A stretch of DNA of 64,000 nt from a virus (taxonomy: Duplodnaviria > Heunggongvirae > Uroviricota > Caudoviricetes). Positions 19,158-51,907 of this stretch are shown here, in pieces. The DNA lies in the IMG/VR virus record IMGVR_UViG_3300032053_000007; one strand, given 5' to 3'. Below the pieces are notes generated by a model. The model was not told the DNA's origin. It worked only from the letters and a program-made list of their open reading frames with translations, and did no database searches. How positions within the stretch are numbered: the stretch's first letter is position 1; each line of letters opens with the position of its first letter. The position numbers and the translations under genes are program-made.

Positions 19158-19201
19158 CTCTCAATACTTTTGGTTTAAAATTCAACTTCACTAAATGCCC
19201 T

Positions 19202-22337: not shown

Positions 22338-22428
22338 ATTCATTCCGCGTCCTTTCATTGAGGACGATGAACGCCCGACTAGACCGATGCCTCACGGGAA
22401 TCCATTCGACTTAGGAGAACTTGATTAA
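22324..22428 (+). CDS. hypothetical mini-protein (34 aa)
   Basis: TAATG overlap with 22428 gene. Confidence 0.35.
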   Translation: MVKHRFIPRPFIEDDERPTRPMPHGNPFDLGELD

Positions 22429-22893: not shown

Positions 22894-23078
22894 CGACTTG
22901 GCAAATTGTTAAGTGTGACGTTTGCGGACGGTCTTATGAACAATACGGGGACGCTCACGATATTGGTGAACAAAACTTCTGCTGTGAACATTGCCTCTGG
23001 ACAGCAGTTAGTAATAGTGGAGAACCACAACCTAGACATACTTGCATAGAGGTAAAGGAAAAGGTGAACTTTACTTGA
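22890..23078 (+). CDS. zinc-ribbon VxFT-tail mini-protein
   Basis: CDVCG..CCEHC; ends EKVNFT. Confidence 0.6.
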   Translation: MTTWQIVKCDVCGRSYEQYGDAHDIGEQNFCCEHCLWTAVSNSGEPQPRHTCIEVKEKVNFT

Positions 23079-23263
23079 GTGGTTTATCAATTAATCGTGG
23101 TTGCTTCAACTGTAAGAAATACAAAAATTGTCGTGGTTCCATAGATAGTGAAAAAGGAATAGACCCAAAAGAAATTCAGAAAGGTAGAAATAATATACCT
23201 TATCGTGCTGGCTGTTGTTGCCAAAATTACGAGTTTGTCAAAGAAAAGGTGCTGTTCACATGA
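23075..23263 (+). CDS. GCFNC family mini-protein
   Basis: trimmed to junction TTG; RGCFNCKKYKNC..YRAGCCC; ends EKVLFT. Confidence 0.6.
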   Translation: MSGLSINRGCFNCKKYKNCRGSIDSEKGIDPKEIQKGRNNIPYRAGCCCQNYEFVKEKVLFT

Positions 23264-23535
23264 TTTGTGCTAAATGCGGAAAGGAAAACGGAAAAGCCAC
23301 GATGTTTAGGGAAACGGGGACAACCAACATTCTTAAACTAAATCCTGTATTTTATATTGGTGCTGATTGTGGTTGTTTTTGGAAGTGGTTGAAATTTCTT
23401 AAAGAGAAAGACCCAAATATCAAAATTGAAAAGAAAAGATGGGGCGCGTCTATAATATTTTCAAAGGGAATAGGTGAAGCAAACGAATTAGCCAAAGAGT
23501 TCGCGGACGATTTTGTGAAGGTGCAATTCACTTGA
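23260..23535 (+). CDS. zinc-ribbon VxFT-tail protein
   Basis: trimmed to junction ATG; ICAKCGK..CGCFWKW; ends VKVQFT. Confidence 0.6.
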   Translation: MICAKCGKENGKATMFRETGTTNILKLNPVFYIGADCGCFWKWLKFLKEKDPNIKIEKKRWGASIIFSKGIGEANELAKEFADDFVKVQFT

Positions 23536-23735
23536 AATGCCAAATTCCGATGTGCAATAAAGAAGCTGTAAAAGAAGTTCACGTTTACAAAAAGGTGAAC
23601 AGAGTAGAAATAATTTTTCTTTGTGAAGAACATTTTAAACAAGAAAATAAATGGCTCAGATATAAGAATATACAGCGAGAGATTTTCGACTTGAAACCTA
23701 AAGTGGATGATAGAATAAGGGTGCAATTTACTTGA
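23532..23735 (+). CDS. VxFT-tail mini-protein
   Basis: CQIPMC..CEEH; ends IRVQFT. Confidence 0.6.
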   Translation: MKCQIPMCNKEAVKEVHVYKKVNRVEIIFLCEEHFKQENKWLRYKNIQREIFDLKPKVDDRIRVQFT

Positions 23736-23968
23736 AACCGAAAAATAGACAAAACGTAAAATGTCCTAAATGTGGAAACGGATGGAATGAATGGGGATTT
23801 GCTTTTGAGCAAAAAGACATAAAATGGGTTCCGAACGGACATAAATTCTTAATGGGATATAAAGTTGTTGAAGGACACGACCCTTATCCTCTTAAAGTAA
23901 CTTGCAAGAAATGTGGTAAAGTTTTCAGAATAGAGTATGTTGATAAGGAAAAGGTCGAGTTCACTTGA
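23732..23968 (+). CDS. zinc-ribbon VxFT-tail mini-protein
   Basis: CPKCG..CKKCG; ends EKVEFT. Confidence 0.6.
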   Translation: MKPKNRQNVKCPKCGNGWNEWGFAFEQKDIKWVPNGHKFLMGYKVVEGHDPYPLKVTCKKCGKVFRIEYVDKEKVEFT

Positions 23969-24288
23969 CTTACTATTGTCCCTTCTGCAAACAAAAAATG
24001 TTTCATCAACCGAACAACCAAAGCGTAACTCAAGACGAAAAACTGAAAGCCAAAGTTGGAGACACTTTCAAATGTAGTTGCAGTATTTTTCAAGAAGATT
24101 CAGACGGGCAAGTTTACCAACTAAATTCGTGGAAACTTGAAAATGATGGATGGTATCATTTCGGCTCAACAAACGGCAAACCAATTAGAGAACATTTTCA
24201 CATGCACAACGAAAATGAGTGGGTAAAAATTTGTGGCAGAACTAGCGAACCATTTGATACACTTCCAGAGGTTGTGAGTTTTACTTGA
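23965..24288 (+). CDS. zinc-ribbon VxFT-tail protein
   Basis: CPFC..CSC; ends EVVSFT. Confidence 0.6.
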   Translation: MTYYCPFCKQKMFHQPNNQSVTQDEKLKAKVGDTFKCSCSIFQEDSDGQVYQLNSWKLENDGWYHFGSTNGKPIREHFHMHNENEWVKICGRTSEPFDTLPEVVSFT

Positions 24289-24443
24289 GCAAAAGAATCA
24301 CTATGAGTATAGACTACGCTGACATTCAGAAAGCCATAGAAATAATGGAGAAAGACGGGTTCTTGGTTGCTATTAGAGGAGATAAAATGATTGTCATGGG
24401 AAAACCAATAAAGGATACAAAGGAGAAGGTACAGTTTACATGA
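24285..24443 (+). CDS. VxFT-tail mini-protein (52 aa)
   Basis: junction TTG; ends EKVQFT. Confidence 0.5.
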   Translation: MSKRITMSIDYADIQKAIEIMEKDGFLVAIRGDKMIVMGKPIKDTKEKVQFT

Positions 24444-24580
24444 CCGAACTTCCAGAACATAAGTGCAAAGGTTGTCAAATGGATTGTTGGGGCAAAGAAT
24501 GGGACGATGAGAAGAAACAATATTTCTGTATAGCTGACGGATTTTATATTCAACAGAAAGAAAGAGTTGAGTTTACTTGA
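24440..24580 (+). CDS. Cys-rich VxFT-tail mini-protein (46 aa)
   Basis: CKGCQMDC; ends ERVEFT. Confidence 0.5.
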   Translation: MTELPEHKCKGCQMDCWGKEWDDEKKQYFCIADGFYIQQKERVEFT

Positions 24581-24870
24581 CAGACCTGAAAATTTGTTCT
24601 GTTTGTAATGAGGAAAAGACATGCCATTCTATTGCCCCATATACTATATGTAAAGATTGTTTTTCAAAATGGACACACTTTCTTGACAAAGGAAGTAGAA
24701 TACAAAGATTAAATGATGCTCGTAAAAATTATAACAATAGTGCAAAATTTGGAAATGATAACGATGAGGGTGAAAAAGCGTGGAAAGAATTCAGCGAAAT
24801 TTGGAACAAATATTTTGAAGAGTTTTTGAAAAACATAGAAACCAGAAAAGAGAAGGTTGCATTTACATGA
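24577..24870 (+). CDS. ZR-W family zinc-ribbon mini-protein
   Basis: CSVC..CKDCFSKW; ends EKVAFT. Confidence 0.65.
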   Translation: MTDLKICSVCNEEKTCHSIAPYTICKDCFSKWTHFLDKGSRIQRLNDARKNYNNSAKFGNDNDEGEKAWKEFSEIWNKYFEEFLKNIETRKEKVAFT

Positions 24871-25013
24871 ATGCCAAAATCACTATGGCTTATACAGGAT
24901 TAACGTGTGACGGATGCGGAAGAAAACAGATTGTGGTAGTTCTTAAAGGAAGAAAGTGGCTTTGTTATGACTGTATGCACAAAATGGACGTGGAGAAAGT
25001 AACCTTTACTTGA
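24867..25013 (+). CDS. zinc-ribbon VxFT-tail mini-protein (48 aa)
   Basis: CDGCG..CYDC; ends EKVTFT; TGA opens cassette 25011. Confidence 0.55.
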   Translation: MNAKITMAYTGLTCDGCGRKQIVVVLKGRKWLCYDCMHKMDVEKVTFT

Positions 25014-27243: not shown

Positions 27244-27477
27244 ATGTTCGGATGGGGAAAGAAAGATAAATGCGATAGTTGTCCAACAGCGAAAATTTTA
27301 GAGGACGCAATGAGATTAGAGAGCGAAACGATTCGTACTTACCGCGACAGAATGGAAACACTTACGAATTATCTTCACCATTTCGAATTACGATACTTAG
27401 ACTTGAAAGAGGAAAACGAAGGTTTAAGAAAAGAGTTAAAGAAGTTGACGGGAAAAGAAAAGGTTCAATTCACTTGA
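27244..27477 (+). CDS. coiled-coil VxFT-tail protein
   Basis: heptad-like LKEENEGLRKELKKL; ends EKVQFT. Confidence 0.6.
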   Translation: MFGWGKKDKCDSCPTAKILEDAMRLESETIRTYRDRMETLTNYLHHFELRYLDLKEENEGLRKELKKLTGKEKVQFT

Positions 27478-31215: not shown

Positions 31216-31485
31216 GTGAGTGAAAAAGTAAAACAATATCTGCAATGTGGATGCAAAACAAAATTTATTCTTCTTGCTAGAGAGGAACACGAGAAACTTC
31301 ACAGAGATGCGTTTATACATTCTCTTGCACTATATAATGGTGCGATTGTTCACAACAACGTGGCACTACTTCATAGCGGAGAATCTTATTATCCTTCTAT
31401 TTCACTTAATTTAGGGGTTCGCCGTTTAGCTTGGCAAAGACGAGTTGAAATCTGGAACGAACCCGAACGTGTTCAATTTACTTGA
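31216..31485 (+). CDS. VxFT-tail protein
   Basis: GTG start; ends ERVQFT; TGA opens cassette 31483. Confidence 0.55.
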   Translation: MSEKVKQYLQCGCKTKFILLAREEHEKLHRDAFIHSLALYNGAIVHNNVALLHSGESYYPSISLNLGVRRLAWQRRVEIWNEPERVQFT

Positions 31486-33562: not shown

Positions 33563-33853
33563 ATGACAACAAGAGAAGATGCAATAAAGCACATTCAGAA
33601 TTATAACAAGCCAAACGAACATATCTGTCTAATAATTTGGAATGTTGAGGACGTTCTGGGACGGGCAAAAGACAGGGGTATGAAAATTACCAAAAATGAA
33701 GCAGAGGAAATTATTGACATAATGGAACATAGACATGACGCAACAATAGGTGTAACTTGGGATACTATTGACTGTTATCTAGGAGATTTAGATGACAAAC
33801 GCCAAGAAGAGGAAAAGGCAAAGAATGGGGCAGAAAAGGTGTCCTTCACTTGA
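33563..33853 (+). CDS. VxFT-tail protein
   Basis: ends EKVSFT; TGA opens cassette 33851. Confidence 0.6.
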   Translation: MTTREDAIKHIQNYNKPNEHICLIIWNVEDVLGRAKDRGMKITKNEAEEIIDIMEHRHDATIGVTWDTIDCYLGDLDDKRQEEEKAKNGAEKVSFT

Positions 33854-35041: not shown

Positions 35042-35187
35042 ATTTCTGGAAAGTTTATCAGAAATGGGTTTTGGTTACGGGCAATATTATTGCCTATTAC
35101 ACCCATTCTGAATTTCTTCTTTTCCTTTTTTTCCTTCTCAATGACCCATTAATAGTTTTAGCATTGAAAGGGAGAACAACAGAATGA
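35038..35187 (+). CDS. small hydrophobic protein (49 aa)
   Basis: ATGA overlap at both ends. Confidence 0.4.
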   Translation: MNFWKVYQKWVLVTGNIIAYYTHSEFLLFLFFLLNDPLIVLALKGRTTE

Positions 35188-35405
35188 TTAAGGTCAGATG
35201 TGCGAATTGCAAAAAAGAATTTTACTGTAATGGTAATGATATGTGTTCTGTCGGCATTCGAGTTTCACAATTTCACAAAAAGATACATGAATGTTATTGT
35301 GAAGAATGTACGAGAAAACAACGCTTAGATACCGCGAAAGGAATTAAAAAATGCGGTTACAGAAAAGTTGAGGACGTAGAACCAGAAATGGTGAAATTCA
35401 CATGA
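35184..35405 (+). CDS. ZR-F family zinc-ribbon mini-protein
   Basis: CANCKKEFYCNGNDMC..CYCEEC; ends EMVKFT. Confidence 0.65.
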   Translation: MIKVRCANCKKEFYCNGNDMCSVGIRVSQFHKKIHECYCEECTRKQRLDTAKGIKKCGYRKVEDVEPEMVKFT

Positions 35406-35725
35406 TTGTCGGATTAAAAATCTTAGATGATTTTCAAGTTGGGGACGCGGAAGAGTTAGTCGAACAACTGAGAAAACGCGGTTTGCTAGATTTGACTCTT
35501 GAACAAGTGAAAGAGAAAGTTAAGAAAGAATATAATGGCACAGATTTTGAGGACGTAGTTTGTAACGATGATTGTATAGACTATATTCTCAAAGATTTAG
35601 CTGACGGTTGTTTTTATTGGGAATACCACAATAGTTCAGAACAATTTACGATAAACATAATTGACCCTAATAAACCATTCACTAAAGACGGTAAAGAACC
35701 AAAGGTTAAGGTGCAATTCAGTTGA
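35402..35725 (+). CDS. acidic VxFS-tail protein
   Basis: ends VKVQFS (AGTTGA junction). Confidence 0.6.
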   Translation: MIVGLKILDDFQVGDAEELVEQLRKRGLLDLTLEQVKEKVKKEYNGTDFEDVVCNDDCIDYILKDLADGCFYWEYHNSSEQFTINIIDPNKPFTKDGKEPKVKVQFS

Positions 35726-35949
35726 GTTTACCAACACAGGGCTGTTTCAACTGTTTGTTTAACAACCGAAAAAAAGGATATTGTGATACGAAAGGAGAAC
35801 AATATGGAACGAGATATGAGAATATAGGAAAACACAGCGAAAAATCCATTAAGACGACAGGAAGCAGTTGTATAACTTGGAAACAAGGAATAGACCTTTT
35901 CGCAAAATGGGATAAAGAGAAAGTAAAGGAAAGGGTGAAGTTTACTTGA
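35722..35949 (+). CDS. GCFNC family mini-protein
   Basis: QGCFNC..GSSC; ends ERVKFT. Confidence 0.6.
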   Translation: MSLPTQGCFNCLFNNRKKGYCDTKGEQYGTRYENIGKHSEKSIKTTGSSCITWKQGIDLFAKWDKEKVKERVKFT

Positions 35950-36119
35950 AGTGTAAAAATTGTAAAAAAGAGTTTAATTGCAAGCAATCATGTGATGCGA
36001 AAAATAGAAAGATGAACCAATGTTTATGTCCTGATTGTTGGGTGAAAAAGAAAGAAAGACTTGTAGAATGTCTTAAAGTCAAGCAACCAAATGAAAGGGA
36101 AATAGTGATGTTCACTTGA
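35946..36119 (+). CDS. ZR-F family zinc-ribbon mini-protein (57 aa)
   Basis: CKNCKKEFNCKQSC..CLCPDC; ends EIVMFT. Confidence 0.6.
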   Translation: MKCKNCKKEFNCKQSCDAKNRKMNQCLCPDCWVKKKERLVECLKVKQPNEREIVMFT

Positions 36120-36265
36120 ACAAAATAATACCCAGAGGACAAGCCAACAGAGAAGAGTTGAAAGTTGGAGATGTCTTTCACAAAAACGGTTATCGTTATC
36201 TGGTTCAAAAAATAGTTCATGGGATTCCATATTTAGAAGAACAAGAGGAAGTGCAATTCACTTGA
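36116..36265 (+). CDS. VxFT-tail mini-protein (49 aa)
   Basis: ends EEVQFT. Confidence 0.5.
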   Translation: MNKIIPRGQANREELKVGDVFHKNGYRYLVQKIVHGIPYLEEQEEVQFT

Positions 36266-36390
36266 ATCGAGAACAGATAATCAAAAATCTAAAATCTGTT
36301 CCAACAGGAAATGTCCAACAGAATCAGCAAATAATTGCTCAGGCATTAATTTACATCTTGGAGAATAAAGAAAAGGTGTCCTTCACTTGA
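36262..36390 (+). CDS. VxFT-tail mini-protein (42 aa)
   Basis: ends EKVSFT. Confidence 0.5.
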   Translation: MNREQIIKNLKSVPTGNVQQNQQIIAQALIYILENKEKVSFT

Positions 36391-36551
36391 GAAGAATGCA
36401 ACTGCAAGCTAACATAAAAACGGGCGTAACTACTCTGAAAGTTTTGATATGCACAAACTATTTACAAGACAGATGCCAAAAGTGTGACATGTATTCTGTG
36501 TGCGATGTTAGTGGCAAAAAGCCTAAAAAGGAAGTTGTGTGTTTCACTTGA
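36387..36551 (+). CDS. Cys-rich VxFT-tail mini-protein (54 aa)
   Basis: CQKCDMYSVC; ends EVVCFT. Confidence 0.5.
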   Translation: MRRMQLQANIKTGVTTLKVLICTNYLQDRCQKCDMYSVCDVSGKKPKKEVVCFT

Positions 36552-36763
36552 CCGAAAAAATTCCGCTAGAAGAAGATTATGACCCCCCAGATTATAGAGA
36601 GAAACTTACTTGTTATAATTGTGAGAAGTTCGCAAGTAGTATTAGAGAAATAGGCAATGGGGGAAGAGTAAAATTTGCTCACAAGTTTTGGTGGCTTTGT
36701 CCCGAATGTTTCAAAAAGCTAATTTTGAAAGAAAAAAGAAAAGAGAGGGTTGAGTTCACATGA
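36548..36763 (+). CDS. zinc-ribbon VxFT-tail mini-protein
   Basis: trimmed to junction TTG; CYNC..CPEC; ends ERVEFT. Confidence 0.6.
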   Translation: MTEKIPLEEDYDPPDYREKLTCYNCEKFASSIREIGNGGRVKFAHKFWWLCPECFKKLILKEKRKERVEFT

Positions 36764-37047
36764 CACGTAAAGTTAGTTTAAGATGGCTTGCGTATTCTAA
36801 TGACCCTCTTGCAGTAAAATTTAGAGGGGGTATAAGTGGGGGTTCAGAGGAATGTGCTCTTTGCTCTATGTTTTTTGAAGATGACTACGATGACGGAGAA
36901 CATATATCTAAATGTTCATTTGAAGAGATACACGAAAGCGAGATAGAACACTTTCAACAGATGGCAGATGAGATGATTTTGGATATTAAAATTACTTCAC
37001 TAGGCGATATAAGGAACGCTATAAAAGAAGTAGTTCAGTTCACTTGA
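36760..37047 (+). CDS. VxFT-tail protein
   Basis: ends EVVQFT; TGA opens cassette 37045. Confidence 0.6.
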   Translation: MTRKVSLRWLAYSNDPLAVKFRGGISGGSEECALCSMFFEDDYDDGEHISKCSFEEIHESEIEHFQQMADEMILDIKITSLGDIRNAIKEVVQFT

Positions 37048-38043: not shown

Positions 38044-38076
38044 GGACGAACACATAGACATAACTGAGTGTCTGCA

Positions 38077-38343
38077 ATGGAAGGAAGTAAAGCGTTTCGC
38101 GCTCAGATAGACAAACTTGTTAAGCAACGAACAAAACTTAAACTAGACGATGACGTAAAAATATTGAGGGGGGAAAACAAAGGCAAGATAGGGTTCATTG
38201 ACAAAATAGGCTCTATAACAGACATTAAAGACGTAAATTCTACACACGTTCAATATCTTGTTCGTGTTGGCAAAGACCTTCTTGCATACGATGATTTTGA
38301 ATTACAGGTAACAATGAAACCTGAGAAAGTGGACTTCACATGA
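38077..38343 (+). CDS. VxFT-tail protein
   Basis: trimmed to ATG 38077; ends EKVDFT. Confidence 0.6.
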   Translation: MEGSKAFRAQIDKLVKQRTKLKLDDDVKILRGENKGKIGFIDKIGSITDIKDVNSTHVQYLVRVGKDLLAYDDFELQVTMKPEKVDFT

Positions 38344-38606
38344 TGTTGAAAACGGATTGTCTAAAATGTGGTGCATGGGTTCCTGAATATAATCGGGACG
38401 ATGATATGATAGACGTTTCTTTGTGCAAAGATTGTCTTGCGATGTGGCACAAATTTCATCACAAATATGGAAGGGATATTGAAAGAAAATATACTCAGGG
38501 CATAAATGGACATCACGCAAGTTGGGCTGTTTTTCTAGGCGAACTTCCTAACTTCTGGGATAAGAGTATAGACAAACCTAAAAAAGAACGAGTGCAATTT
38601 ACATGA
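38340..38606 (+). CDS. ZR-W family zinc-ribbon mini-protein
   Basis: CLKCG..CKDCLAMW; ends ERVQFT. Confidence 0.65.
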   Translation: MMLKTDCLKCGAWVPEYNRDDDMIDVSLCKDCLAMWHKFHHKYGRDIERKYTQGINGHHASWAVFLGELPNFWDKSIDKPKKERVQFT

Positions 38607-38761
38607 ATAACCCCGATTGTGAAAAGTGTCATTGCAACGGTTGTGCTAACTTCTGCTATAAAACTTGTAAAAGTCATTCATGTGGTGCTGACAGAGAAAA
38701 TTATCCTTACAAAATTTTGTGCAGAGAAATCAAAATCAGAGAGAAGGTATTGTTCACTTGA
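38603..38761 (+). CDS. Cys-rich VxFT-tail mini-protein (52 aa)
   Basis: 9 Cys; ends EKVLFT. Confidence 0.5.
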   Translation: MNNPDCEKCHCNGCANFCYKTCKSHSCGADRENYPYKILCREIKIREKVLFT

Positions 38762-38985
38762 AGTGCGCTAAATGTCACAAAGAAATTCAGGGACGAGAAG
38801 TTAAGATAGGAGAATCTAAAGAAACTATGAGAATTATTTGTATGGGGTGCAGAACAGTTTGGATAAAAATTTATGAGAAAAAGATTCAGATATTAGAAGG
38901 TTTCCAACTTCAAAATAAAGTTTGGAAAGAAGAGTATCACAAGTTCATAGGAATTATAGACAAAGAACAGGTAGAATTTACATGA
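38758..38985 (+). CDS. ZR-W family zinc-ribbon mini-protein
   Basis: trimmed to junction TTG; CAKC..CMGCRTVW; ends EQVEFT. Confidence 0.6.
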   Translation: MKCAKCHKEIQGREVKIGESKETMRIICMGCRTVWIKIYEKKIQILEGFQLQNKVWKEEYHKFIGIIDKEQVEFT

Positions 38986-39128
38986 ATCGAAACGAACAAC
39001 CTGATTATTGCAAAAAGTGTGAGTTGGATTGTGAGGGAAGAGTATGGGATTCAAAAAGAGGATTGTGGTATTGCACAAGTTGGACTTGCTTTATTCCAGA
39101 TAACAGAGAGCGAGTTGAGTTTACTTGA
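38982..39128 (+). CDS. Cys-rich VxFT-tail mini-protein (48 aa)
   Basis: trimmed to junction ATG; CKKCELDC; ends ERVEFT. Confidence 0.55.
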   Translation: MNRNEQPDYCKKCELDCEGRVWDSKRGLWYCTSWTCFIPDNRERVEFT

Positions 39129-39505
39129 GTGGCACTTTTTCGAATTGGACTTTACGCAAAGAACCTGAGTTTGAAACCGAACTAACAGATATTATGGAAG
39201 AATATTCAGATGACACGATAGAGAAAAATATCCTTATCATTTTGAAACGGGAGAAATTATGGGATAAGGGGTTTGAACTGATTTTTCCTATTGGAGCTTT
39301 CAAAGAGATAGATAAAGAAAATGATAGCTACCAATTTGACTATGAGATTTGGAAGGGCGATAAGGTAATTGCTAGTGGAACTTGTTACGGGACTGTCACA
39401 ACCGACTTGGCATATTCAGAAATTTTAGATATGACACTAGAAATAAATGAGGGATATAGCGAACTTGTACGTTTACATTCAAAAGAAAAGGTTGAGTTTA
39501 CATGA
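39125..39505 (+). CDS. acidic VxFT-tail protein
   Basis: ends EKVEFT. Confidence 0.6.
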   Translation: MSGTFSNWTLRKEPEFETELTDIMEEYSDDTIEKNILIILKREKLWDKGFELIFPIGAFKEIDKENDSYQFDYEIWKGDKVIASGTCYGTVTTDLAYSEILDMTLEINEGYSELVRLHSKEKVEFT

Positions 39506-39717
39506 TAGTCCCCGAACTTTTCAAAAGAACTTGTAGAACGTGTGGACGAATTTTTTACTGTGATAATGATTGTGGAAAACTTGAAAAGAGCAAACATAGT
39601 AATGGTTGTGAATGTGGATTATGCCACGCAAAAACAGTAAGGGAAAATGGTCGTTCTTGCGAAGAACGAATGGAGCGAAACAAATATCGTTATCAAGAGG
39701 TTGTACAATTTACATGA
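39502..39717 (+). CDS. ZR-F family zinc-ribbon mini-protein
   Basis: CRTCGRIFYCDNDC..CECGLC; ends EVVQFT. Confidence 0.65.
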   Translation: MIVPELFKRTCRTCGRIFYCDNDCGKLEKSKHSNGCECGLCHAKTVRENGRSCEERMERNKYRYQEVVQFT

Positions 39718-39815
39718 ACCATCTACAACATATTTTTACAAAATATAGAAGTCTCAAAAAATGGTATGACCGTTTTGAAATTGAGAAAGAACCCGTGAGA
39801 GTGCAATTCACATGA
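39714..39815 (+). CDS. VxFT-tail mini-protein (33 aa)
   Basis: trimmed to junction ATG; ends VRVQFT. Confidence 0.5.
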   Translation: MNHLQHIFTKYRSLKKWYDRFEIEKEPVRVQFT

Positions 39816-40027
39816 CACAAAAATCCTATAATCGTATTTGTGAAAAATGCGGTGAATCTTTTCAAACGAATAACGATATTCTTTGTCAAAAATGCAGAGA
39901 AAAATGGTATAATTTTTACGAACTTCACAAAAACGATGCCGACATTCCAGAATCCGAAGCAAAAGCAACCTTTCTCTGGGACAAGTTTATTAAAAGGGTA
40001 GATAAAGAGGTAGTGCAATTTACATGA
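39812..40027 (+). CDS. ZR-W family zinc-ribbon mini-protein
   Basis: CEKCG..CQKCREKW; ends EVVQFT. Confidence 0.65.
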   Translation: MTQKSYNRICEKCGESFQTNNDILCQKCREKWYNFYELHKNDADIPESEAKATFLWDKFIKRVDKEVVQFT

Positions 40028-40233
40028 AGAAATATCCATTAGCTCTAACAAAGAAGTGCGGTAATTGTGGTAGAACTTTCACTTGTAAAGGGAGAGGATG
40101 GACTAAATCTTCAATAACGGGAAAATGTCCTCACGAATATAGCGTTTGTTGGTGTGAAAAATGCAATCATGGGTCGGGTCGTCCAGAAGGTTGCGAAGAG
40201 GTTGACTTAAAAGAAGTGGTGCAATTCACATGA
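40024..40233 (+). CDS. ZR-F family zinc-ribbon mini-protein
   Basis: CGNCGRTFTCKG..CWCEKC; ends EVVQFT. Confidence 0.65.
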   Translation: MKKYPLALTKKCGNCGRTFTCKGRGWTKSSITGKCPHEYSVCWCEKCNHGSGRPEGCEEVDLKEVVQFT

Positions 40234-40373
40234 CGGAAATATACTGCGCTGGAAAAATAATTTACTGCGATGTCGGGGAGATAAATCATTATGACGATTT
40301 TTGTCAAAAGAGTTGCAGACAACGTTCGATTTGTGAAGTGAGAAAACAAAAAGAAGAGGTTCAATTCACTTGA
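40230..40373 (+). CDS. Cys-rich VxFT-tail mini-protein (47 aa)
   Basis: ends EEVQFT. Confidence 0.5.
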   Translation: MTEIYCAGKIIYCDVGEINHYDDFCQKSCRQRSICEVRKQKEEVQFT

Positions 40374-40567
40374 AAGAAATGACGTGCCAAGTTTGCGGAA
40401 AAAAGTTCTTCTGTAATTGTGACGAAGAATGTTCCCCAGACGCTACATTATGCTATTGTAAAGAATGTTCAATCAAAAAATGGGGAACAAAATTTACTGA
40501 AGATATAGGGTCACTTGAATTGTGCTATGGGGGAATACCCGAAAAAGAGAAGGTGTTATTCACTTGA
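40370..40567 (+). CDS. ZR-F family zinc-ribbon mini-protein
   Basis: CQVCGKKFFCNC..CYCKEC; ends EKVLFT. Confidence 0.65.
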   Translation: MKEMTCQVCGKKFFCNCDEECSPDATLCYCKECSIKKWGTKFTEDIGSLELCYGGIPEKEKVLFT

Positions 40568-40773
40568 CAAACAAACTCGTTGATAAAGAAGAACTTCCAG
40601 ATTTTTGTCCCGTGTGCGGAGAAAAGAATAACGGAAAATGGGCGTTTCTTTGTATAAAATGTTGGATGGTTTTTGTCAAGTGGAGTCATGAAAAATATCC
40701 GAATGACATAATAATTTCAGACCATATTCCAGAATATTTAGCCAAACTCAAAGAGAAGGTAGAGTTCACTTGA
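40564..40773 (+). CDS. ZR-W family zinc-ribbon mini-protein
   Basis: trimmed to junction TTG; CPVCG..CIKCWMVF; ends EKVEFT. Confidence 0.6.
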   Translation: MTNKLVDKEELPDFCPVCGEKNNGKWAFLCIKCWMVFVKWSHEKYPNDIIISDHIPEYLAKLKEKVEFT

Positions 40774-41048
40774 AATGTTCGAAATGTGGAAAACCAATAA
40801 CTGTAACTCTTCCAAAAAAGAAATGGTTCCACGTAAGCAATTCTAATAATTTTGAACATAAAGACGAAGATACCAAAACGATAGATGCGGTTTTAATCTT
40901 TTTAGTAAATAGCGGATTTAAACATAACATCTGGATTTGTAGAGGATGTTATGACGAATGGGGCATCTTTCATGGGAAACATTTTGGAAGATGGGAATAT
41001 TGCTGGAATCTCTGGTTTAATATGAGAGAGGTTGTTCGATTCACATGA
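40770..41048 (+). CDS. ZR-W family zinc-ribbon mini-protein
   Basis: CSKCGK..CRGCYDEW; ends EVVRFT. Confidence 0.65.
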   Translation: MKCSKCGKPITVTLPKKKWFHVSNSNNFEHKDEDTKTIDAVLIFLVNSGFKHNIWICRGCYDEWGIFHGKHFGRWEYCWNLWFNMREVVRFT

Positions 41049-41260
41049 ACAAAATTTGTGGAAAATGCGGAAAACATTTCGTGTGCAATAATGGGTGCGC
41101 TAGATTAGGTCTTAGTCATGGCAAAGTGCAATACGGGGGTTGTTATTGCTCCGATTGTGCGCGAAAGTTTGAGAAATCCGAAGTTGGGGAATACCCAAAA
41201 GATTTGAAAGAAGTTTGTTCACGATTCTGTAAAGCTAAAGAAACGGTGTCATTCACATGA
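41045..41260 (+). CDS. ZR-F family zinc-ribbon mini-protein
   Basis: CGKCGKHFVCNNGC..CYCSDC; ends ETVSFT. Confidence 0.65.
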   Translation: MNKICGKCGKHFVCNNGCARLGLSHGKVQYGGCYCSDCARKFEKSEVGEYPKDLKEVCSRFCKAKETVSFT

Positions 41261-41487
41261 CCCATAAATCTCCGCTTGCACAATGGAAAAAGAAACCACT
41301 TGTCGAATTGAAAAGTGAAATTCATACTTTACAAGCATTGAGCAACCGATTAACTAGGTCTGCGGAACTACATAAAAAAGAGAGAAATTTTCCAATGCAA
41401 ATGGTTTGTCTGATAAAGAAGAGAAAAGTCGATATTAGAATTTCTGAACTTATGTTTCGGATTCCAGAAAAGGTGAGTTTCGATTGA
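41257..41487 (+). CDS. VxFD-tail protein
   Basis: ends EKVSFD. Confidence 0.6.
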   Translation: MTHKSPLAQWKKKPLVELKSEIHTLQALSNRLTRSAELHKKERNFPMQMVCLIKKRKVDIRISELMFRIPEKVSFD

Positions 41488-41624
41488 CAGAAGAGAAAAT
41501 GATAGAATGTTTTAGATGTGGAAAACTTTGGTTCTGCAAACCCTTCGCTGGAAGTCGTGCACTTTTTTGTCCCGAATGTCTAAAACTATTGTATAAACAA
41601 AAAGAGAAAGTTCGGTTCGATTAG
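41484..41624 (+). CDS. zinc-ribbon VxFD-tail mini-protein (46 aa)
   Basis: CFRCGKLWFC..CPEC; ends EKVRFD; stop TAG, last gene of array. Confidence 0.55.
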   Translation: MTEEKMIECFRCGKLWFCKPFAGSRALFCPECLKLLYKQKEKVRFD

Positions 41625-44619: not shown

Positions 44620-44847
44620 GTGAAATATAAAAGACATTGCACACATTGTAAGAACAATTTTTTCTGCAACGGAAAATGCAAAAGTGATAGACTTAAAAAT
44701 CCGAATGACTGTTATTGTCTTGAGTGTGTAAAAAAAGTTTCGGAAGAGTTTTCAAAGTTGTCTGGGGCAGACTCTACTTATGAATCTTTTAACGTTGTTC
44801 AATTTCATTGCCAAGAATCGGGCAGAGAAGAAGTGCAATTTACTTAA
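44620..44847 (+). CDS. ZR-F family zinc-ribbon mini-protein
   Basis: CTHCKNNFFCNGKC..CYCLEC; ends EEVQFT with TAA and no downstream gene. Confidence 0.65.
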   Translation: MKYKRHCTHCKNNFFCNGKCKSDRLKNPNDCYCLECVKKVSEEFSKLSGADSTYESFNVVQFHCQESGREEVQFT

Positions 44848-46390: not shown

Positions 46391-46606
46391 ATGACATATA
46401 TCGGGCAAGACGAAGAATTAACGATAGAGCGTGGTTGTTTTAATTGCGCTCGATTCAAAAAATGTCATCTTATTGAGGGACAAAGAAGAAATGGAATTAA
46501 TTTTATGGAGATTTTGAAGGACGGTGCGGAAGATTATCGTTATGGTTGTTGTTGCACAACTTATCTAGCAGAATCCGAAGCTAGAGAACAGGTGCAATTT
46601 ACTTGA
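46391..46606 (+). CDS. GCFNC family mini-protein
   Basis: trimmed to ATG 46391; RGCFNCARFKKC..YRYGCCC; ends EQVQFT. Confidence 0.6.
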   Translation: MTYIGQDEELTIERGCFNCARFKKCHLIEGQRRNGINFMEILKDGAEDYRYGCCCTTYLAESEAREQVQFT

Positions 46607-46890
46607 TTCAAAATTGTCCGTCTTGCGGTTCAATTCGCTTGACTCGAAAATGTCCGTCTTGTGGTTCTATTCTGGAAGAACAAAGTGGAACACTTTTTTT
46701 CACAGATAGTTTTTCACAACACGATAGACAAAAAATAAGGGAAACTCACTTTTTGCATTATTTTTGCGAAGTTTGTCGTAAAAATGATTTGCCTTTTGAC
46801 TTTTTATTTTTCAAAGGAAAACAATTCATTTATGATAAGGGCAGATGGAACCTCTTAGCTCCTGAGAGAGAATGTGTTCAATTCACCTAA
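46603..46890 (+). CDS. zinc-ribbon VxFT-tail protein
   Basis: CPSCGS..CPSCGS; ends ECVQFT encoded GAATGTGTTCAATTCACCTAA (no SD, TAA stop). Confidence 0.6.
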   Translation: MIQNCPSCGSIRLTRKCPSCGSILEEQSGTLFFTDSFSQHDRQKIRETHFLHYFCEVCRKNDLPFDFLFFKGKQFIYDKGRWNLLAPERECVQFT

Positions 46891-46946
46891 TTAATCAACC
46901 ATAAGACTTAAATACTTAATTAACCATCTATTAATTAGTGTTTCAA

Positions 46947-48490: not shown

Positions 48491-48648
48491 AAACTTTGAC
48501 AAAACAACCTTCGTGGACGGATAACCGAATTTTGACACGCAACGAAGTTAGACGGGGATTAGTAGAAAATTGGCTGAACGGTTGTGAATTTTCCGAAGCG
48601 TTTCTTAATTCAGACCTTTACAAACTAGAGAACAAGAGCGTGAAATAA
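48487..48648 (+). CDS. hypothetical small protein (53 aa)
   Basis: GTG start; TAATG overlap with next. Confidence 0.4.
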   Translation: MKTLTKQPSWTDNRILTRNEVRRGLVENWLNGCEFSEAFLNSDLYKLENKSVK

Positions 48649-48803
48649 TGTCTAAAAAGAAATTCTTAGTTACATACGAAGGGGACGACCCCCCGACATT
48701 GCTCGACATGAAAGACTGTCTGTTATCAAACGGAATGGACGAAGGGGGCATTCTCACAGTCGTAGAGGTCAAACGGACGAAGGAAAAGGTTGCATTTACA
48801 TGA
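48648..48803 (+). CDS. VxFT-tail mini-protein (51 aa)
   Basis: ends EKVAFT. Confidence 0.5.
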   Translation: MSKKKFLVTYEGDDPPTLLDMKDCLLSNGMDEGGILTVVEVKRTKEKVAFT

Positions 48804-49021
48804 ATCAAATAATAAAAGCTGGCGATTTTGTACGGTTGCTTAAATCAAATAATCCTTACGTTCCCGTAGGCACGATACTAGAAGTTGAATCAATTACAAA
48901 AAAAACCCCACTTGTTTTTACCGTGTGTGTGGTAAAACGAAAATGGTCAAAGTATTTCGTTCACGGTGACATAATTCGAAAGGTGAAATTCATGGTTCCT
49001 GAGAGGGTTGAATTTACATGA
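48800..49021 (+). CDS. VxFT-tail mini-protein
   Basis: ends ERVEFT. Confidence 0.6.
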   Translation: MNQIIKAGDFVRLLKSNNPYVPVGTILEVESITKKTPLVFTVCVVKRKWSKYFVHGDIIRKVKFMVPERVEFT

Positions 49022-49464: not shown

Positions 49465-49662
49465 GTGACGGATTTAAACTTAAAGGCTCTTCTGAAAAAT
49501 CACGATGTCCCTATTTGCATTGATGAGGCAGAATGTCCTCATAAGGTTCACAGAAAGAACCCCTATAAACCTCTATGCTTATTGCCTTTTCTTAACTATA
49601 AACATAAAGAATGCAAAGCGCAAAGATACCCAGACGCAAAGGAAAAGGTGAACTTTACATGA
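49465..49662 (+). CDS. VxFT-tail mini-protein
   Basis: GTG start; ends EKVNFT. Confidence 0.55.
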   Translation: MTDLNLKALLKNHDVPICIDEAECPHKVHRKNPYKPLCLLPFLNYKHKECKAQRYPDAKEKVNFT

Positions 49663-49952
49663 CGGGTAAATGGGTCTGGGATGGAACTAATTCGTGGAGA
49701 ATAGGAACCGAATTTCTTAGTTTAGACGTTTATGAAGATTGTGAAACTCATACTCCCAATGAATGTGAGTGCACAGAGATTTGGCTCAGAGATGATAAAA
49801 CAGGAAAATACGATACTGAGGGAATCTTTAACACTTATGAAGAGGCAAAAAGTCATGCTGAACAATTTATGAGAGAAAATCCGAATGGATGGCTTTTAAA
49901 GGACAGTTTAAAAACAGAATACGACAAAAGGGAAAAGGTGACGTTTACATGA
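49659..49952 (+). CDS. VxFT-tail protein
   Basis: trimmed to junction ATG; ends EKVTFT. Confidence 0.6.
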   Translation: MTGKWVWDGTNSWRIGTEFLSLDVYEDCETHTPNECECTEIWLRDDKTGKYDTEGIFNTYEEAKSHAEQFMRENPNGWLLKDSLKTEYDKREKVTFT

Positions 49953-50068
49953 CTGACTGTGCTATAATAGTGTTCGACAAAGATACAGGAAAACTTAGAT
50001 GTTTCATTCATACGGCAGAGTTTAATCGCTGGCTAGACAGAAGAAAAGAACGGGTGATTTTCTCGTGA
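49949..50068 (+). CDS. VxFS-tail mini-protein (39 aa)
   Basis: ends ERVIFS, GTGA junction. Confidence 0.45.
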   Translation: MTDCAIIVFDKDTGKLRCFIHTAEFNRWLDRRKERVIFS

Positions 50069-50259
50069 CGTTTCAAGTTGGCGATAAGGCAAAGCTAAAA
50101 TACGCTGGCTTTAGGCATTGCCCCAAAGGTTCATTTGTTAAAATTACAAGAATTATGTCAAACAGAACCATTGATATAAGATATAAAACCGAAAGGTATG
50201 TTGTATCTGATACAGATTTAATCGAATTACAACAAAAGGAGAAGGTATGTTTCACATGA
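50065..50259 (+). CDS. VxFT-tail mini-protein
   Basis: ends EKVCFT. Confidence 0.6.
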   Translation: MTFQVGDKAKLKYAGFRHCPKGSFVKITRIMSNRTIDIRYKTERYVVSDTDLIELQQKEKVCFT

Positions 50260-50462
50260 CAACAATAGACGATAACGGTTATATCGAGTACGATTATGAG
50301 GATTTGTGTACGGAATGCAAGATGCACGATAAATGTCACGAAAACAGTATTGATTATGATGAAATTGATAAATGTTGTCAAGAACTTAATTCTCAAATGA
50401 AAGCGCGAGGAACCAAACTATATAAAACCCCAGAGCCAAAAGAGAAGGTGTTATTCACATGA
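50256..50462 (+). CDS. acidic Cys-rich VxFT-tail mini-protein
   Basis: trimmed to junction ATG; CTECKMHDKC; ends EKVLFT. Confidence 0.6.
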   Translation: MTTIDDNGYIEYDYEDLCTECKMHDKCHENSIDYDEIDKCCQELNSQMKARGTKLYKTPEPKEKVLFT

Positions 50463-50605
50463 CGGGCGTTCTCGTTATACCGTGTTCAAAATGTGGCAGA
50501 CCTCTCAATATTCCCGTTAAAAACTATGCGGATGCAAAGAAGATAGGTTCAAGAATGTGTAAGCAATGCAACAACAAAGGAAGAGAAAAGGTCTGTTTCA
50601 CATGA
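50459..50605 (+). CDS. zinc-ribbon VxFT-tail mini-protein (48 aa)
   Basis: CSKCG..CKQC; ends EKVCFT. Confidence 0.55.
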   Translation: MTGVLVIPCSKCGRPLNIPVKNYADAKKIGSRMCKQCNNKGREKVCFT

Positions 50606-50820
50606 TTTGTTCTAAATGTGGAAACGAGTTCAAACAACGAATTAACGAGAAATTATGCTTTAATTGTATGATGTACGAGCTAGACAGGCTCAGAGAGCAA
50701 GGCGAACGCATAGACAAGTTACTTTCCGATAACCCAGAGATAATGGAACTCTTAGACAAAATGAAGGCGCGAGAGATTATTAACCGTCTAAAGGGACGGG
50801 AAACGGTGACGTTCACATGA
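50602..50820 (+). CDS. zinc-ribbon VxFT-tail mini-protein
   Basis: trimmed to junction ATG; CSKCG..CFNC; ends ETVTFT. Confidence 0.6.
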   Translation: MICSKCGNEFKQRINEKLCFNCMMYELDRLREQGERIDKLLSDNPEIMELLDKMKAREIINRLKGRETVTFT

Positions 50821-50996
50821 TTTGTAAAGTTTGTGGAAAGAGATTCACTTGCAATAATATATGTGATAGTTTGCATAAATTGAGCGCGAACGTGTGTTAT
50901 TGCAAACCATGTTCAATAGAAAGAGGATTCAAAGGCAATACCCTAAATGTTTGTTATAAAAAGGCTAACGAAAAAGAACAGGTCGAGTTCACATGA
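50817..50996 (+). CDS. ZR-F family zinc-ribbon mini-protein (59 aa)
   Basis: CKVCGKRFTCNNIC..CYCKPC; ends EQVEFT. Confidence 0.6.
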   Translation: MICKVCGKRFTCNNICDSLHKLSANVCYCKPCSIERGFKGNTLNVCYKKANEKEQVEFT

Positions 50997-51232
50997 TAAA
51001 TTCAAACCGTAAAAAGTGTTGTATTTGCGGTAAAAAAGGTTATGCAAATTATCACGATATACAGACTGAGGAAAAACTTTATCTTTGCGACTCACATGGT
51101 ATTTTGTGGGAAAAATCACAAGAACGACATGACTTCTTTCACGATAGAAGAGATAATACTTGGGAGTCTTTTTTCAAAAAGTGGCTATTAAAACGCAAAG
51201 TAACAACAAAAGAGAAGGTCAATTTCACTTGA
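50993..51232 (+). CDS. zinc-ribbon VxFT-tail mini-protein (ZR-W-like)
   Basis: CCICGK..CDSHGILW; ends EKVNFT. Confidence 0.6.
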   Translation: MINSNRKKCCICGKKGYANYHDIQTEEKLYLCDSHGILWEKSQERHDFFHDRRDNTWESFFKKWLLKRKVTTKEKVNFT

Positions 51233-51456
51233 AAGAGAAAGGTTGCTTTAACTGTTCGAACAAGAGGAATCTCGACAAGATTTATTATAAATGCACAGAG
51301 ATGCGCTCACAACCTAACTTAACTGAACCGAACGGGAAAGCTACAGGATTTTTAAGGGACGTGAAAACTCCGTTAGGTAGTCCTAGACATTCTTATCGTT
51401 TAGGTTGTTCATGTGAGTATTGGAAGAGTGAACGGGAAACGGTTGAATTTACATGA
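51229..51456 (+). CDS. GCFNC family mini-protein
   Basis: trimmed to junction TTG; KGCFNC..YRLGCSC; ends ETVEFT. Confidence 0.6.
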   Translation: MKEKGCFNCSNKRNLDKIYYKCTEMRSQPNLTEPNGKATGFLRDVKTPLGSPRHSYRLGCSCEYWKSERETVEFT

Positions 51457-51695
51457 CAAAATTTAAAGGACGTTGTAGAAAATGCAAAAGAATAGTTAGC
51501 GGTCAATTTCCAATTAAACTATTATTGGCTGTTCTCTGCGAAAGTTGTAACGAAGAATGGAAGAGATATTTTTCAAAAAGGTTTGACAAAGAACATGGGA
51601 CGCTTTTAGGTTTTCATACGCCCATTGAAGAATGGGAAAAGGAAAAGTGGTTTAAGGATTTTCTCAACAGCAAAGAGAAGGTAGAGTTTACATGA
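51453..51695 (+). CDS. ZR-W family zinc-ribbon mini-protein
   Basis: CRKCK..CESCNEEW; ends EKVEFT. Confidence 0.65.
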   Translation: MTKFKGRCRKCKRIVSGQFPIKLLLAVLCESCNEEWKRYFSKRFDKEHGTLLGFHTPIEEWEKEKWFKDFLNSKEKVEFT

Positions 51696-51907
51696 TTCAA
51701 CTAACAAAAACCGATTATAATATTTGTATTTCATCAATAAGCTATTATAGTTGCACTAATTGTTGGAAAAACAGCCTAAAAGTTTATCGTTTGAAAGGAA
51801 AAGTACAAGAAAGAGGAAAAATTGGCATAACTTTAACGTGGCTCTGCCCTGACTGTTTCGAAAAAATCATCAAAAAGAAAGACATAGAACAGGTTCAATT
51901 TACATAA
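51692..51907 (+). CDS. zinc-ribbon VxFT-tail mini-protein
   Basis: CTNC..CPDC; ends EQVQFT with ACATAA (no start formed). Confidence 0.6.
   Translation: MIQLTKTDYNICISSISYYSCTNCWKNSLKVYRLKGKVQERGKIGITLTWLCPDCFEKIIKKKDIEQVQFT

Follow-up and report, generated by a model that had tools for sequence, protein, structure and literature searches.

A V-x-F-T tail at the C-terminus of unrelated mini-proteins in a large virus-like element: a putative recognition tag combined with a Shine-Dalgarno junction

Background

Encapsulin cargo-loading peptides and the peroxisomal targeting signal PTS1 (SKL-COOH, read by PEX5) are short C-terminal tags that are carried by unrelated cargo proteins. In bacteria and archaea, overlapping stop and start codons (e.g., ATGA) are coupled through a preceding Shine-Dalgarno (SD) sequence, while in caliciviruses a conserved sequence before an overlapping stop and start, the termination upstream ribosome-binding site (TURBS), tethers the small ribosomal subunit through rRNA complementarity. 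In addition, proteasome activators such as PAN have a hydrophobic-Tyr-X C-terminus, termed HbYX (PMC12352868). Here we describe a C-terminal tail, V-x-F-T, that is shared by small genes in a stretch of 64,000 nucleotides (hereafter "the window") from the IMG/VR virus record IMGVR_UViG_3300032053_000007 (Caudoviricetes), which represents approx. 14.2 - 78.2 kb of a 151,756-bp metagenomic contig, ERZ27247916 k141_6238898; particular attention is paid to the gene at 46603..46890 (the "focal gene"). A first-pass annotation, made from the sequence alone, had proposed that this tail is selected as a peptide in its own right.

The tail resembles SD-led coupling in that 68 of the 80 tails found in the window form a 4-nt overlap with the next start codon (NTGA, i.e., A/T/GTGA) and contain an SD sequence, the codons of which relax if no gene follows. 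Ordinary coupling of this kind, however, fixes no peptide, whereas here the V, F, T and E residues are held at the amino-acid level, and the window-type tail persists in uncoupled genes as well as in sister lineages with non-overlapping junctions. At its 3' end, the focal gene itself shows neither a stop/start overlap (NTGA or TAATG) nor a GGT 8 - 13 nt before a start codon. Moreover, while TURBS acts as RNA, only the SD core of the tail is complementary to rRNA and the remainder is conserved as protein. The logic that fits best is that of encapsulin cargo peptides and PTS1, with which the tail shares a short, uniform and flexible form, a place at the extreme C-terminus and many unrelated carriers (i.e., one conserved peptide on 63 clusters of protein bodies); on the other hand, its sequence is unrelated to these tags, its carriers are tiny zinc-ribbon proteins and it is dual-coded with an SD sequence.

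On balance, sequence comparisons indicate that the tail is probably a lineage-specific C-terminal recognition or docking tag on unrelated mini-proteins, which serves secondarily as an SD/restart junction. In this family of large, uncharacterised virus-like elements, a linear C-terminal tag with an embedded SD would then be used unusually widely, on the scale of the proteome; we found no description of the tail strings or of an SD-driven C-terminal bias in the searchable literature.

Results and Discussion

One tail on many unrelated small proteins

C-termini of the form V-x-F-[T/D/S] were found for 80 of the approx. 217 plus-strand genes in the window (about a third), as compared to approx. 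0.07 expected from amino-acid composition (3.1 × 10-4 per C-terminus). When a looser pattern, [V/I/L]-x-F-[T/D/S], was counted over every stop codon, 84 open frames were found on the plus strand versus 12 on the minus strand. Internal occurrences of V-x-F-[T/D/S] were at chance level (22 observed, 18 expected), and E-x-V-x-F-[TDS] occurred internally only once. The 80 tail proteins are 33 - 126 amino acids (aa) long (median 71); the class of tail proteins as a whole spans 33 - 145 aa and is mostly of the zinc-ribbon type. The complete motif can be written as [K/R/P]-E-[K/V/R]-V-x-F-T, with the nucleotide consensus GAR AAG GTN NNN TTY ACW TGA. All 80 window tails have Phe as their penultimate residue (tails in the pooled dataset described below were selected on F at -2, so that Phe there is by definition), and the terminal residue is T in approx. 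90% of tails and otherwise D or S. At position -3, Q (38%) and E (22%) are frequent and hydrophobic residues are a minority in the window lineage, and 61% of the 6 residues preceding the tail are polar or charged.

One possible explanation for a shared ending is that recent tandem duplication produced the tail genes as paralogues and left the tail as a functionless remnant, a case that the first-pass annotation had named as speaking against its own proposal. A few small paralogue families are indeed present in the window (one each with 7 and 4 members, and 8 families of 2). After removal of the last 8 residues, however, the 80 proteins fell into 63 BLAST clusters, and each Pfam or PHROG family was matched only once among them. 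In the product of 16830..17102, a complete Lar domain stops 26 residues short of the end of the protein, which marks the tail as an add-on, and the DUF7569 domain encoded by 17344..17595 stops at residue 55 of 83, well before the tail. Moreover, more than 45 clusters with <50% identity keep the tail, with fixed residues at saturated synonymous sites. The clustering of bodies rules out recent duplication, and a leftover of shared ancestry has next to no probability as the source of the tail.

The AlphaFold 2 model of the zinc-ribbon family, the largest one, showed a domain of moderate confidence with block means of the predicted local distance difference test (pLDDT) of 56 - 76 (approx. 64 - 76 in the best-folded part), whereas the C-terminal third (residues 44 - 65), including the tail, showed pLDDT <50 and no secondary structure. 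The model of the focal protein was uninformative (pLDDT 43).

The focal gene ends in a tail without a coupled start

The TTG start of the focal gene overlaps the TGA of the upstream tail gene (46391..46606). At its 3' end, the focal gene encodes the tail ERECVQFT, the last seven codons of which (46867..46887, plus strand) read AGA GAA TGT GTT CAA TTC ACC (R-E-C-V-Q-F-T) and are followed by TAA. The SD core is absent, as TGT GTT stands in place of AAG GTG and no GGT or AGGTG is present, and ACC followed by TAA yields CTA rather than a start codon; the next open reading frame (ORF) begins after 47 nt. These data, with the gap as an addition, bear out the first-pass description of the focal tail, and all coordinates and tail sequences that it listed proved correct. 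This includes its statement that the genes starting at 24867, 31216, 33563 and 36760 keep the tail before a promoter cassette; in each of them, the tail and TGA directly precede a GYATGG...TTCT...RGTTTAWAWAGGACG arrangement.

The orthologue of the upstream gene in two related loci (L031 and L035) is itself terminal and ends EKEHVQFT-TAA, with CAG changed to CAT. In a third locus (L028), a different tail gene of 58 aa, ending KEHVQFT-TAG, occupies the terminal place. The focal gene and the ORF that follows it (46603-47300) were confined to the window lineage in a comparison with these three loci. This following ORF encodes a Cys/His-rich protein of 120 aa that looks HNH-like by eye; Pfam searches with the neighbours of the focal gene, including this ORF, gave no matches. 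A search among 5.8 × 10^9 proteins returned a single match to the focal protein, a 99% identical copy, and homologue searches with the focal and the Lar-like protein yielded only the proteins themselves or near-identical copies.

Related loci and the pooled dataset

An exact scan of IMG/VR for one junction variant (type-1) gave no real matches, while the same variant was found in 50 loci of Joint Genome Institute (JGI) metagenomes, mostly from lake sediment and peat, with samples of the series Ga03152xx and Ga0187xxx among them; approx. 30 of these 50 loci carry arrays of tail genes and show 68 - 80% nucleotide identity to the window. A broader junction pattern yielded only 25 singletons in IMG/VR, which served as a negative control. 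After de-duplication at 90% identity, the pool comprised 715 genes, including 289 tail genes with usable context, i.e., 243 coupled genes (-4 overlap), 5 genes with a -1 overlap and 41 uncoupled genes. The tail was borne by 182 of 190 in-array coupled genes, and 73 NTGA overlaps without a tail were present in the same elements. Reciprocal best hits provided 191 pairs with at least one tail gene (mean identity 57%), of which 129 were coupled in both members and 42 contained an uncoupled member.

The Shine-Dalgarno layer relaxes at uncoupled ends while the peptide layer does not

Two layers of conservation can be separated in the tail. The SD layer, which consists of codon -5 and the synonymous sites of the E, K and V codons, relaxes at uncoupled ends, whereas the peptide layer, i.e., [K/R/P] at -7, E at -6, V at -4, F at -2 and T at -1, is unrelaxed there. 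In the window lineage, codon -5 and the V codon together spell (A)AGGT(G), which sits 9 nt before the next start in the 68 coupled window tails, and the last codon and TGA spell the overlap. Lys is encoded by AAG in 24% of cases in gene bodies, in 95% in coupled tails and in 11 of 14 cases in uncoupled tails; the corresponding values are 11%, 60% and 37% for GTG as the Val codon and 25%, 56% and 35% for GAG as the Glu codon. GGT at -20 to -9 is present in 88% of coupled but only 51% of uncoupled tails (P = 3 × 10-7), against a baseline of 10% at the equal position in uncoupled genes without a tail. Where V occupies position -5, the SD moves to GAG GTN. Codon -5 differs non-synonymously between orthologues in 33% of coupled pairs as compared to 69% of pairs with an uncoupled member. 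The last base of the tail is A or T in coupled genes (forming ATG or TTG starts), and C occurs only in uncoupled genes (ACC, GAC). Finally, while all coupled tails use TGA, the stops of uncoupled tails are TGA (51%), TAA (29%) and TAG (20%), with a background of 30%, 51% and 19%, respectively, in uncoupled genes without a tail.

By comparison, the ratios of synonymous to non-synonymous differences in coupled pairs were 63/2 for V (-4), 64/0 for F (-2), 50/14 for T (-1) and 51/16 for E (-6), and those in pairs with an uncoupled member were 21/3, 18/1, 16/6 and 17/7, respectively; the x codon was non-synonymous in 85 of the coupled pairs. Synonymous sites are saturated, as TTT and TTC occur at approx. 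1:1 and GTN in all four codons. The [K/R/P] at -7 is kept in 84% of coupled and 85% of uncoupled tails, and the E at -6 in 86% and 83%, respectively. The first-pass annotation had held that the junction does not decay at operon ends; this applies to its peptide half, which persists, while its SD half does decay. The comparison of synonymous and non-synonymous change that it had proposed indicates purifying selection on the peptide, and the view that selection acts on the peptide itself is upheld by these counts, by relaxation that is restricted to the SD layer, by the unrelated bodies and by the sister lineages described below.

A pure RNA or DNA signal (i.e., an SD with spacer, a hairpin, a recombination site or the target of an RNA-binding protein), of which the peptide would be a by-product, could account for the strong GAG AAG GTG bias in coupled tails and for the cassette-like shuffling of genes with breakpoints at junctions; in addition, the G-T at -12/-11 is complementary to the A-C at -3/-2. 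We consider such a signal very improbable, however, as conservation is codon-periodic with randomised third positions and only T, S and D alternate at the last position, although their codons (ACN, TCN, AGT, GAY) share no nucleotides. Moreover, the third bases of the V and F codons do not covary (P = 0.34), RNA folding at the junction was no better than for shuffled sequences (z = +0.3 to +1.2), no Rfam matches were found, the x codon is free and the identity of junctions is too low for homologous recombination.

Three mechanisms were considered separately and rejected. A hairpin formed by the GT/AC pairing is contradicted by the lack of both covariation and folding excess, and gene conversion among junctions is ruled out by the randomised third codon positions. 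For a programmed -1 frameshift or polyprotein, we reason from sequence that TTY ACW TGA is not slippery in -1, and the downstream frames open with their own A/T/GTG.

With regard to start codons, tail junctions in the pooled data are followed by 122 TTG, 113 ATG and 8 GTG starts (window examples are the junctions at 46603, 40370 and 36116), which matches neutral usage of ACT and ACA, whereas overlaps without a tail favour ATG (47 of 73, with 14 TTG). ACG, which would make a GTG start, is depleted in tails, and coupled tails never end in ACC.

Sister lineages keep a tail without the window-type junction

When 1.84 billion cluster representatives were searched with the profile of one window family, 52 proteins were detected, 51 of them real; approx. 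47 of these 51 representatives, which are mutually <50% identical, end in the tail. (A zinc-ribbon profile searched against a word-indexed database found only 11 proteins.) One exception, P0055, ends KPFIFR. In its contig (Ga0314860_0239874; L093), all 5 - 6 genes end [P/T]-F-[V/I]-F-R, encoded as CCN TTY RTN TTY AGG TGA, so that the last codon and the stop form the SD sequence AGGTGA. The last gene of this contig has AGA TAA in place of AGG TGA, yet its product retains the ending PFIFR.

A distant relative of the window (IMGVR_UViG_3300005573_000073, reverse complement; L097), with KaiC-like, P-loop, MoxR, 232-aa and vWA proteins at 35 - 62% identity, carries F-[V/I]-F-R endings in 9 of 32 genes. 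The terminal R is encoded by AGG (3), AGA (5) or CGA (1), the stops are mixed and the gaps to the next gene range from -4 to +75 nt. In alignments of homologous small bodies from the two lineages, KEKVQFT of the window lineage faces KKPFVFR of this relative. A third lineage is represented by IMGVR_UViG_3300009034_000042 (L110), the MoxR protein of which is 70% identical to that of the window. Here, four consecutive genes located 3' of the vWA gene (6883-7827) end KEKIKFT, TEKVLFT, LETVIFT and KEKVVFT, with TAA or TAG stops, gaps of 3 - 12 nt and the next SD beyond the stop; 3 of the 4 tails have no GGT, and hydrophobic residues predominate at x.

Each lineage uses a uniform tag, which changes from one lineage to another, i.e., E-K-V-x-F-T in the window and L110 as compared to P-F-[V/I]-F-R in L097 and L093; hydrophobic(-4)-x-Phe(-2)-x-COOH is the core that they share. 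As these sister lineages keep tails without the window-type junction, the peptide is the primary conserved object, and the ATGA/SD fusion of the window would therefore be a lineage-specific elaboration of it. The sister lineages are the decisive evidence for a tail at the peptide level.

The dialects also bear on the possibility that the tail is a generic protective ending (e.g., for resistance to exoproteases or C-degrons, or for solubility) of fast-evolving and possibly de novo mini-proteins, which would act without a receptor. Such an ending would be consistent with the very diverse and fast-diverging bodies that carry the tail and with its strictly C-terminal position on a flexible end with a polar last residue. 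It would rarely need an invariant V and F around a free residue, however, and does not predict a concerted lineage-wide switch to PFVFR; many other small proteins of the same elements also manage without a tail. We therefore regard a protective ending as rather improbable. A concerted change of dialect throughout a lineage, on the other hand, is what would be expected from co-evolution of a docking tag with a single receptor.

Retention of the tail at operon ends

Among in-array terminal genes, 26 carry perfect tails, 17 have unrelated endings and none is a near-miss, and the whole set includes approx. 2 true near-misses and 1 - 2 visibly decayed tails versus the 41 perfect uncoupled ones. Decay was seen in L042, where the terminal tail of 5601-5891 reads VQLRT-TAG; at 930-1097 in the same locus, a change of TGA to TGG lengthens KEKVRFT by WKVVA, and this extension recreates AAGGTGG and ATGA. 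Uncoupled orthologues of tail families retain the tail in 24 of 26 pairings, and some families are uncoupled in both diverged members, such as 36760..37047 with L047_12298 (52% identity, likewise terminal, PEKVKFT-TAG) and 27244..27477 with two genes of L047 (47 - 48% identity; GKEVVQFT, TGA or TAG, no GGT). Sequence comparison suggests that tail status follows the gene family rather than the position. Other uncoupled window tails have coupled counterparts; orthologues of 14247..14411 in L016, L020 and L050 end KVQFT-TGA, and that of 31216..31485 (L047_8718) has AAG GTG. The tail of 51692..51907 retains AGGT despite its TAA end.

Gene order within the arrays is scrambled and whole genes are gained or lost between elements, as found when the window arrays 15992-20104, 22428-25013 and 38068-41624 were compared with L052, L034, L053 and L047, while the flanking large genes are syntenic at 80 - 94% identity. 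The arrays appear to behave as rows of cassettes in which the junction serves as a standard connector.

Tails at operon ends could also be relics of such cassette movement, in a source-sink relationship, if the nascent C-terminal peptide and the SD acted together in the terminating ribosome to favour re-initiation. A number of observations favour this cis-acting role in translation and weigh against a tag. Tail presence tracks coupling strongly (243 of 289 tails, or 84%, are coupled, in addition to the high tail frequency among in-array coupled genes), genes within arrays have changed places between elements of only 70 - 80% identity, and uncoupled tail genes pair with a coupled orthologue in 25 of 33 pairings. 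Uncoupled tails keep an intermediate SD codon bias and an excess of TGA, and this half-relaxed usage implies that many terminal tails are evolutionarily young. Positionally stable terminal array genes (families ending EILREIWQ, LTLSLIRS and MVFLEQPL) have no tail, and the near parity of TTG and ATG starts at tail junctions, unlike at other overlaps, hints at a special mode of restart. The near-invariant V and F could also fit constraint by a universal machine, e.g., the ribosome. Furthermore, the gene models used here are our own dynamic-programming calls, at least one of which (in L035) is wrong. Given shuffling, coupled orthologues and half-relaxed SD usage, a source-sink model, with cassettes that are located inside arrays for most of the time and at an end only for short periods, could sustain tails at operon ends, and their persistence there is weak evidence when taken alone, weaker than the first-pass annotation assumed.

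Even so, a role confined to the terminating ribosome is unlikely. In L110 and L097, tails precede TAA or TAG stops and gaps of 3 - 75 nt, with the SD after the stop or outside the tail, and the 73 NTGA overlaps without a tail function in the same elements. The G of the SD, the base that makes the start and the TGA have independently gone from many uncoupled tails in which V, F and T are intact, and two dialects on homologous bodies are not obviously demanded by a universal ribosome. An effect at the tRNA level is also unlikely, since ACA and ACT are read by different tRNAs and D and S variants exist.

A putative docking tag and its possible receptor

Conserved residues of the tail alternate (-6, -4 and -2, plus the terminal one), a pattern that would be produced by an extended strand with a single side turned towards a partner. 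As a tag, the tail may bind in this form to one conserved partner of host or viral origin; a pocket would accommodate Phe (-2) together with the hydrophobic residue at -4, and the free carboxylate would be recognised. All proteins of the class could thereby be sorted, loaded, chaperoned or degraded at a set time. The first-pass annotation had suggested packaging, a degron, HbYX-like docking or beta-strand augmentation as possible roles. We tentatively put forward a more specific version, which we regard as possible rather than probable, namely addressing run by the virus, in which a dialect-specific tag of 4 - 7 residues would send dozens of small effectors to a single co-evolving receptor (an importer or loader for a compartment or particle built by the virus, or a host hub, e.g., the proteasome) in elements that are possibly archaeal, with fusion to the SD turning the genes of one lineage into plug-in cassettes.

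No shell, receptor or compartment gene was recognised among the scanned window ORFs. Specifically, 30 ORFs of at least 114 aa were searched against Pfam (ten also against PHROGs), covering 64 kb of the at least 152-kb element, and gave no match to an encapsulin or HK97-type shell and only a weakly terminase-like ATPase; no tetratricopeptide repeat (TPR) receptor was matched either. The PTS1 consensus, [S/A/C]-[K/R/H]-[L/M]-COOH, differs from the x-F-T found here.

HbYX, which docks into pockets between subunits of the 20S alpha ring, is similar in its extreme C-terminal place and its aromatic penultimate residue. By strict definition, however, the window tail differs, as the penultimate residue is Phe and never Tyr and position -3 is mostly Q or E; moreover, its conserved hydrophobic residue is located at -4 and not at -3, and its carriers are not ATPases or assembly factors. 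The sister dialects are closer, with [V/I]-F-R in L097 and mostly [L/I/V]-F-T in L110 (L, I, V or K at -3). Class I and II PDZ ligands need a hydrophobic last residue, whereas the tail ends in T, D or S (R in the second dialect), and sortase, archaeosortase and exosortase signals need a transmembrane helix and a basic tail after the motif, whereas here the motif is the end of the protein; the polar last residue and the lack of a hydrophobic anchor exclude both kinds of signal.

If the tail is a tag, it would represent the first simple linear address label common to a large fraction of the proteome of a prokaryotic virus. The 7-mer peptide would then provide a direct handle for fishing out the receptor, dozens of orphan mini-proteins could be classified as one functional class, and the lineage dialects would offer a ready co-evolution screen for the partner. 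The tail is also a clean natural case of dual coding, in which a start codon, an SD and a peptide motif are written into the same 21 nt as layers that can be separated by comparison, and the standardised junction may explain the fast shuffling and recruitment of small genes in these elements.

Since the terminal residue is limited to T, S and D, it is conceivable that the Thr at the end is phosphorylated and that Asp mimics this state. A dual-specificity-phosphatase-like ORF (DSPc, E = 3 × 10-7, slightly below the Pfam cut-off) is present in the window. At least five window proteins show HExxH zinc-peptidase-like motifs, one of them SprT-like by Pfam; another, of 575 aa, combines HECGH with a vWA-type DxSxS motif (DFSGS) and adjoins the MoxR AAA+ gene. 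As pure speculation, these proteins are candidate processors or partners of the tails.

Tail genes, promoter-like cassettes and palindromes in the window

The locations of tail genes and other features in the window are listed in Table 1.

Table 1. Positions of tail genes and other sequence features within the window
Feature	Position	Strand	Description
Focal gene	46603..46890	+	95 aa, two CPSCGS, zinc-ribbon-like
Upstream tail gene	46391..46606	+	AREQVQFT; CAG GTG is the SD; ACT TGA makes the TTG start of 46603
Tail array, 18 genes	15992..20104	+	NTGA-joined; internal tail-less gene 16150-16287; internal uncoupled tail gene 18927-19157 (TAG)
Tail array, 12 genes	22428..25013	+	22428-22661 ends VVSFD-TAA (uncoupled)
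Last gene of array 22428..25013	24867-25013	+	Tail and TGA right before promoter-like cassette
Tail array, 9 genes	35184..37047	+	Terminal gene 36760-37047 ends IKEVVQFT-TGA, no GGT; cassette 37068-37082 after it
Tail array, 17 genes	38068..41624	+	Terminal gene 41484-41624 ends KVRFD-TAG
Tail array, 12 genes	49465..51907	+	Terminal gene 51692-51907 ends EQVQFT-TAA
Tail gene just 3' of vWA gene	44620..44847	+	EEVQFT-TAA (GAA GTG, no SD)
Tail gene	14247..14411	+	KVQFD-TAA, uncoupled
Stand-alone tail gene	31216..31485	+	EPERVQFT-TGA; CGT GTT, no SD; cassette 31506-31520 after it
Stand-alone tail gene	33563..33853	+	GAEKVSFT-TGA; cassette 33874-33888 after it
Tail gene	27244..27477	+	GKEKVQFT-TGA; next start 1 nt beyond the stop
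Two coupled tail genes	6018..6343	+	End KVQFD and KVKFD (D variant at last residue)
Two coupled tail genes	48648..49021	+	KEKVAFT and PERVEFT; then positionally stable tail-less terminal gene 49018-49266
Lar tail gene	16830..17102	+	Complete Lar restriction-alleviation domain, residues 8-64 of 90; 31.8 bits (cut-off 28.6)
Stops of the 12 uncoupled window tails	14411, 19157, 22661, 25013, 27477, 31485, 33853, 37047, 41624, 44847, 46890, 51907
Promoter-like cassettes (examples)	983, 6540, 31506, 33874, 37068, 44942, 47326, 53113
Palindromes (examples)	5097, 20979/21312, 25370/25421, 33389/33447, 42165/42231, 44897, 47281/47353, 52306/52371
ORF 3' of focal gene	46938-47300		120 aa, Cys/His-rich
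HExxH-containing proteins	9171-9596, 14786-15229, 42715-44442, 56784-57287, 60025-60498
Dual-specificity-phosphatase-like ORF	11009-11404
Protein adjoining SPFH gene	32538-33218		226 aa

Operons in the window are preceded by a TATA-like cassette, RGTTTAWAWAGGACG, that resembles archaeal B recognition element (BRE)/TATA sequences and occurs 20 times (18 times on the plus strand) as compared to 1.3 expected; a longer first version of the pattern had given zero matches. The cassette often follows GYATGG and a T-rich tract, immediately after the final stop of an operon. A palindrome, TTAATCA-NN-TGATTAA, was found 24 times versus 1.1 expected and always at gene borders, often in pairs that are 50 - 140 bp and up to approx. 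330 bp apart (20979/21312). This palindrome may be an operator that is bound by a dimeric regulator, or else a terminator-like element. The tail gene 44620..44847 is followed by 138 non-coding nt that include both a palindrome and a promoter-like cassette.

The element and its host

The window is 89% coding by our gene model, with approx. 37% GC and nearly all genes on the plus strand, and appears to belong to a large (at least 152 kb) virus-like element that is one of a family. Two GT2 glycosyltransferases and an RNA ligase are encoded in the window, together with a KaiC-like ATPase, an SPFH protein, the weakly terminase-like P-loop ATPase and a MoxR AAA+ protein that is accompanied by a vWA/HExxH protein. 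One further product belongs to phrog_6452, which occurs in many tailed phages. On the contig, the window is preceded by sugar-nucleotide and glycosyltransferase genes, ParB_N and a trypsin-like protease, and followed by genes for dCMP deaminase, ribonucleotide reductase and an HNH endonuclease. Scans of the window for tRNAs and Rfam families gave no matches, and a search of IMG/VR with the vWA protein returned no relatives. The BRE/TATA-like cassettes, together with a short (1.9 kb) tail-bearing contig that was binned with a Pacearchaeota metagenome-assembled genome, suggest an archaeal host.

Cumulative GC skew climbs steadily to approx. 52 kb of the window and is flat afterwards (52000-64000). 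Tail genes and NTGA overlaps end at the same place, which suggests a module or replication boundary. The 226-aa protein encoded next to the SPFH gene has hydrophobic segments at its N- and C-terminal ends and contains many tandem repeats similar to V-Y-V-D-R-I-V-E-K.

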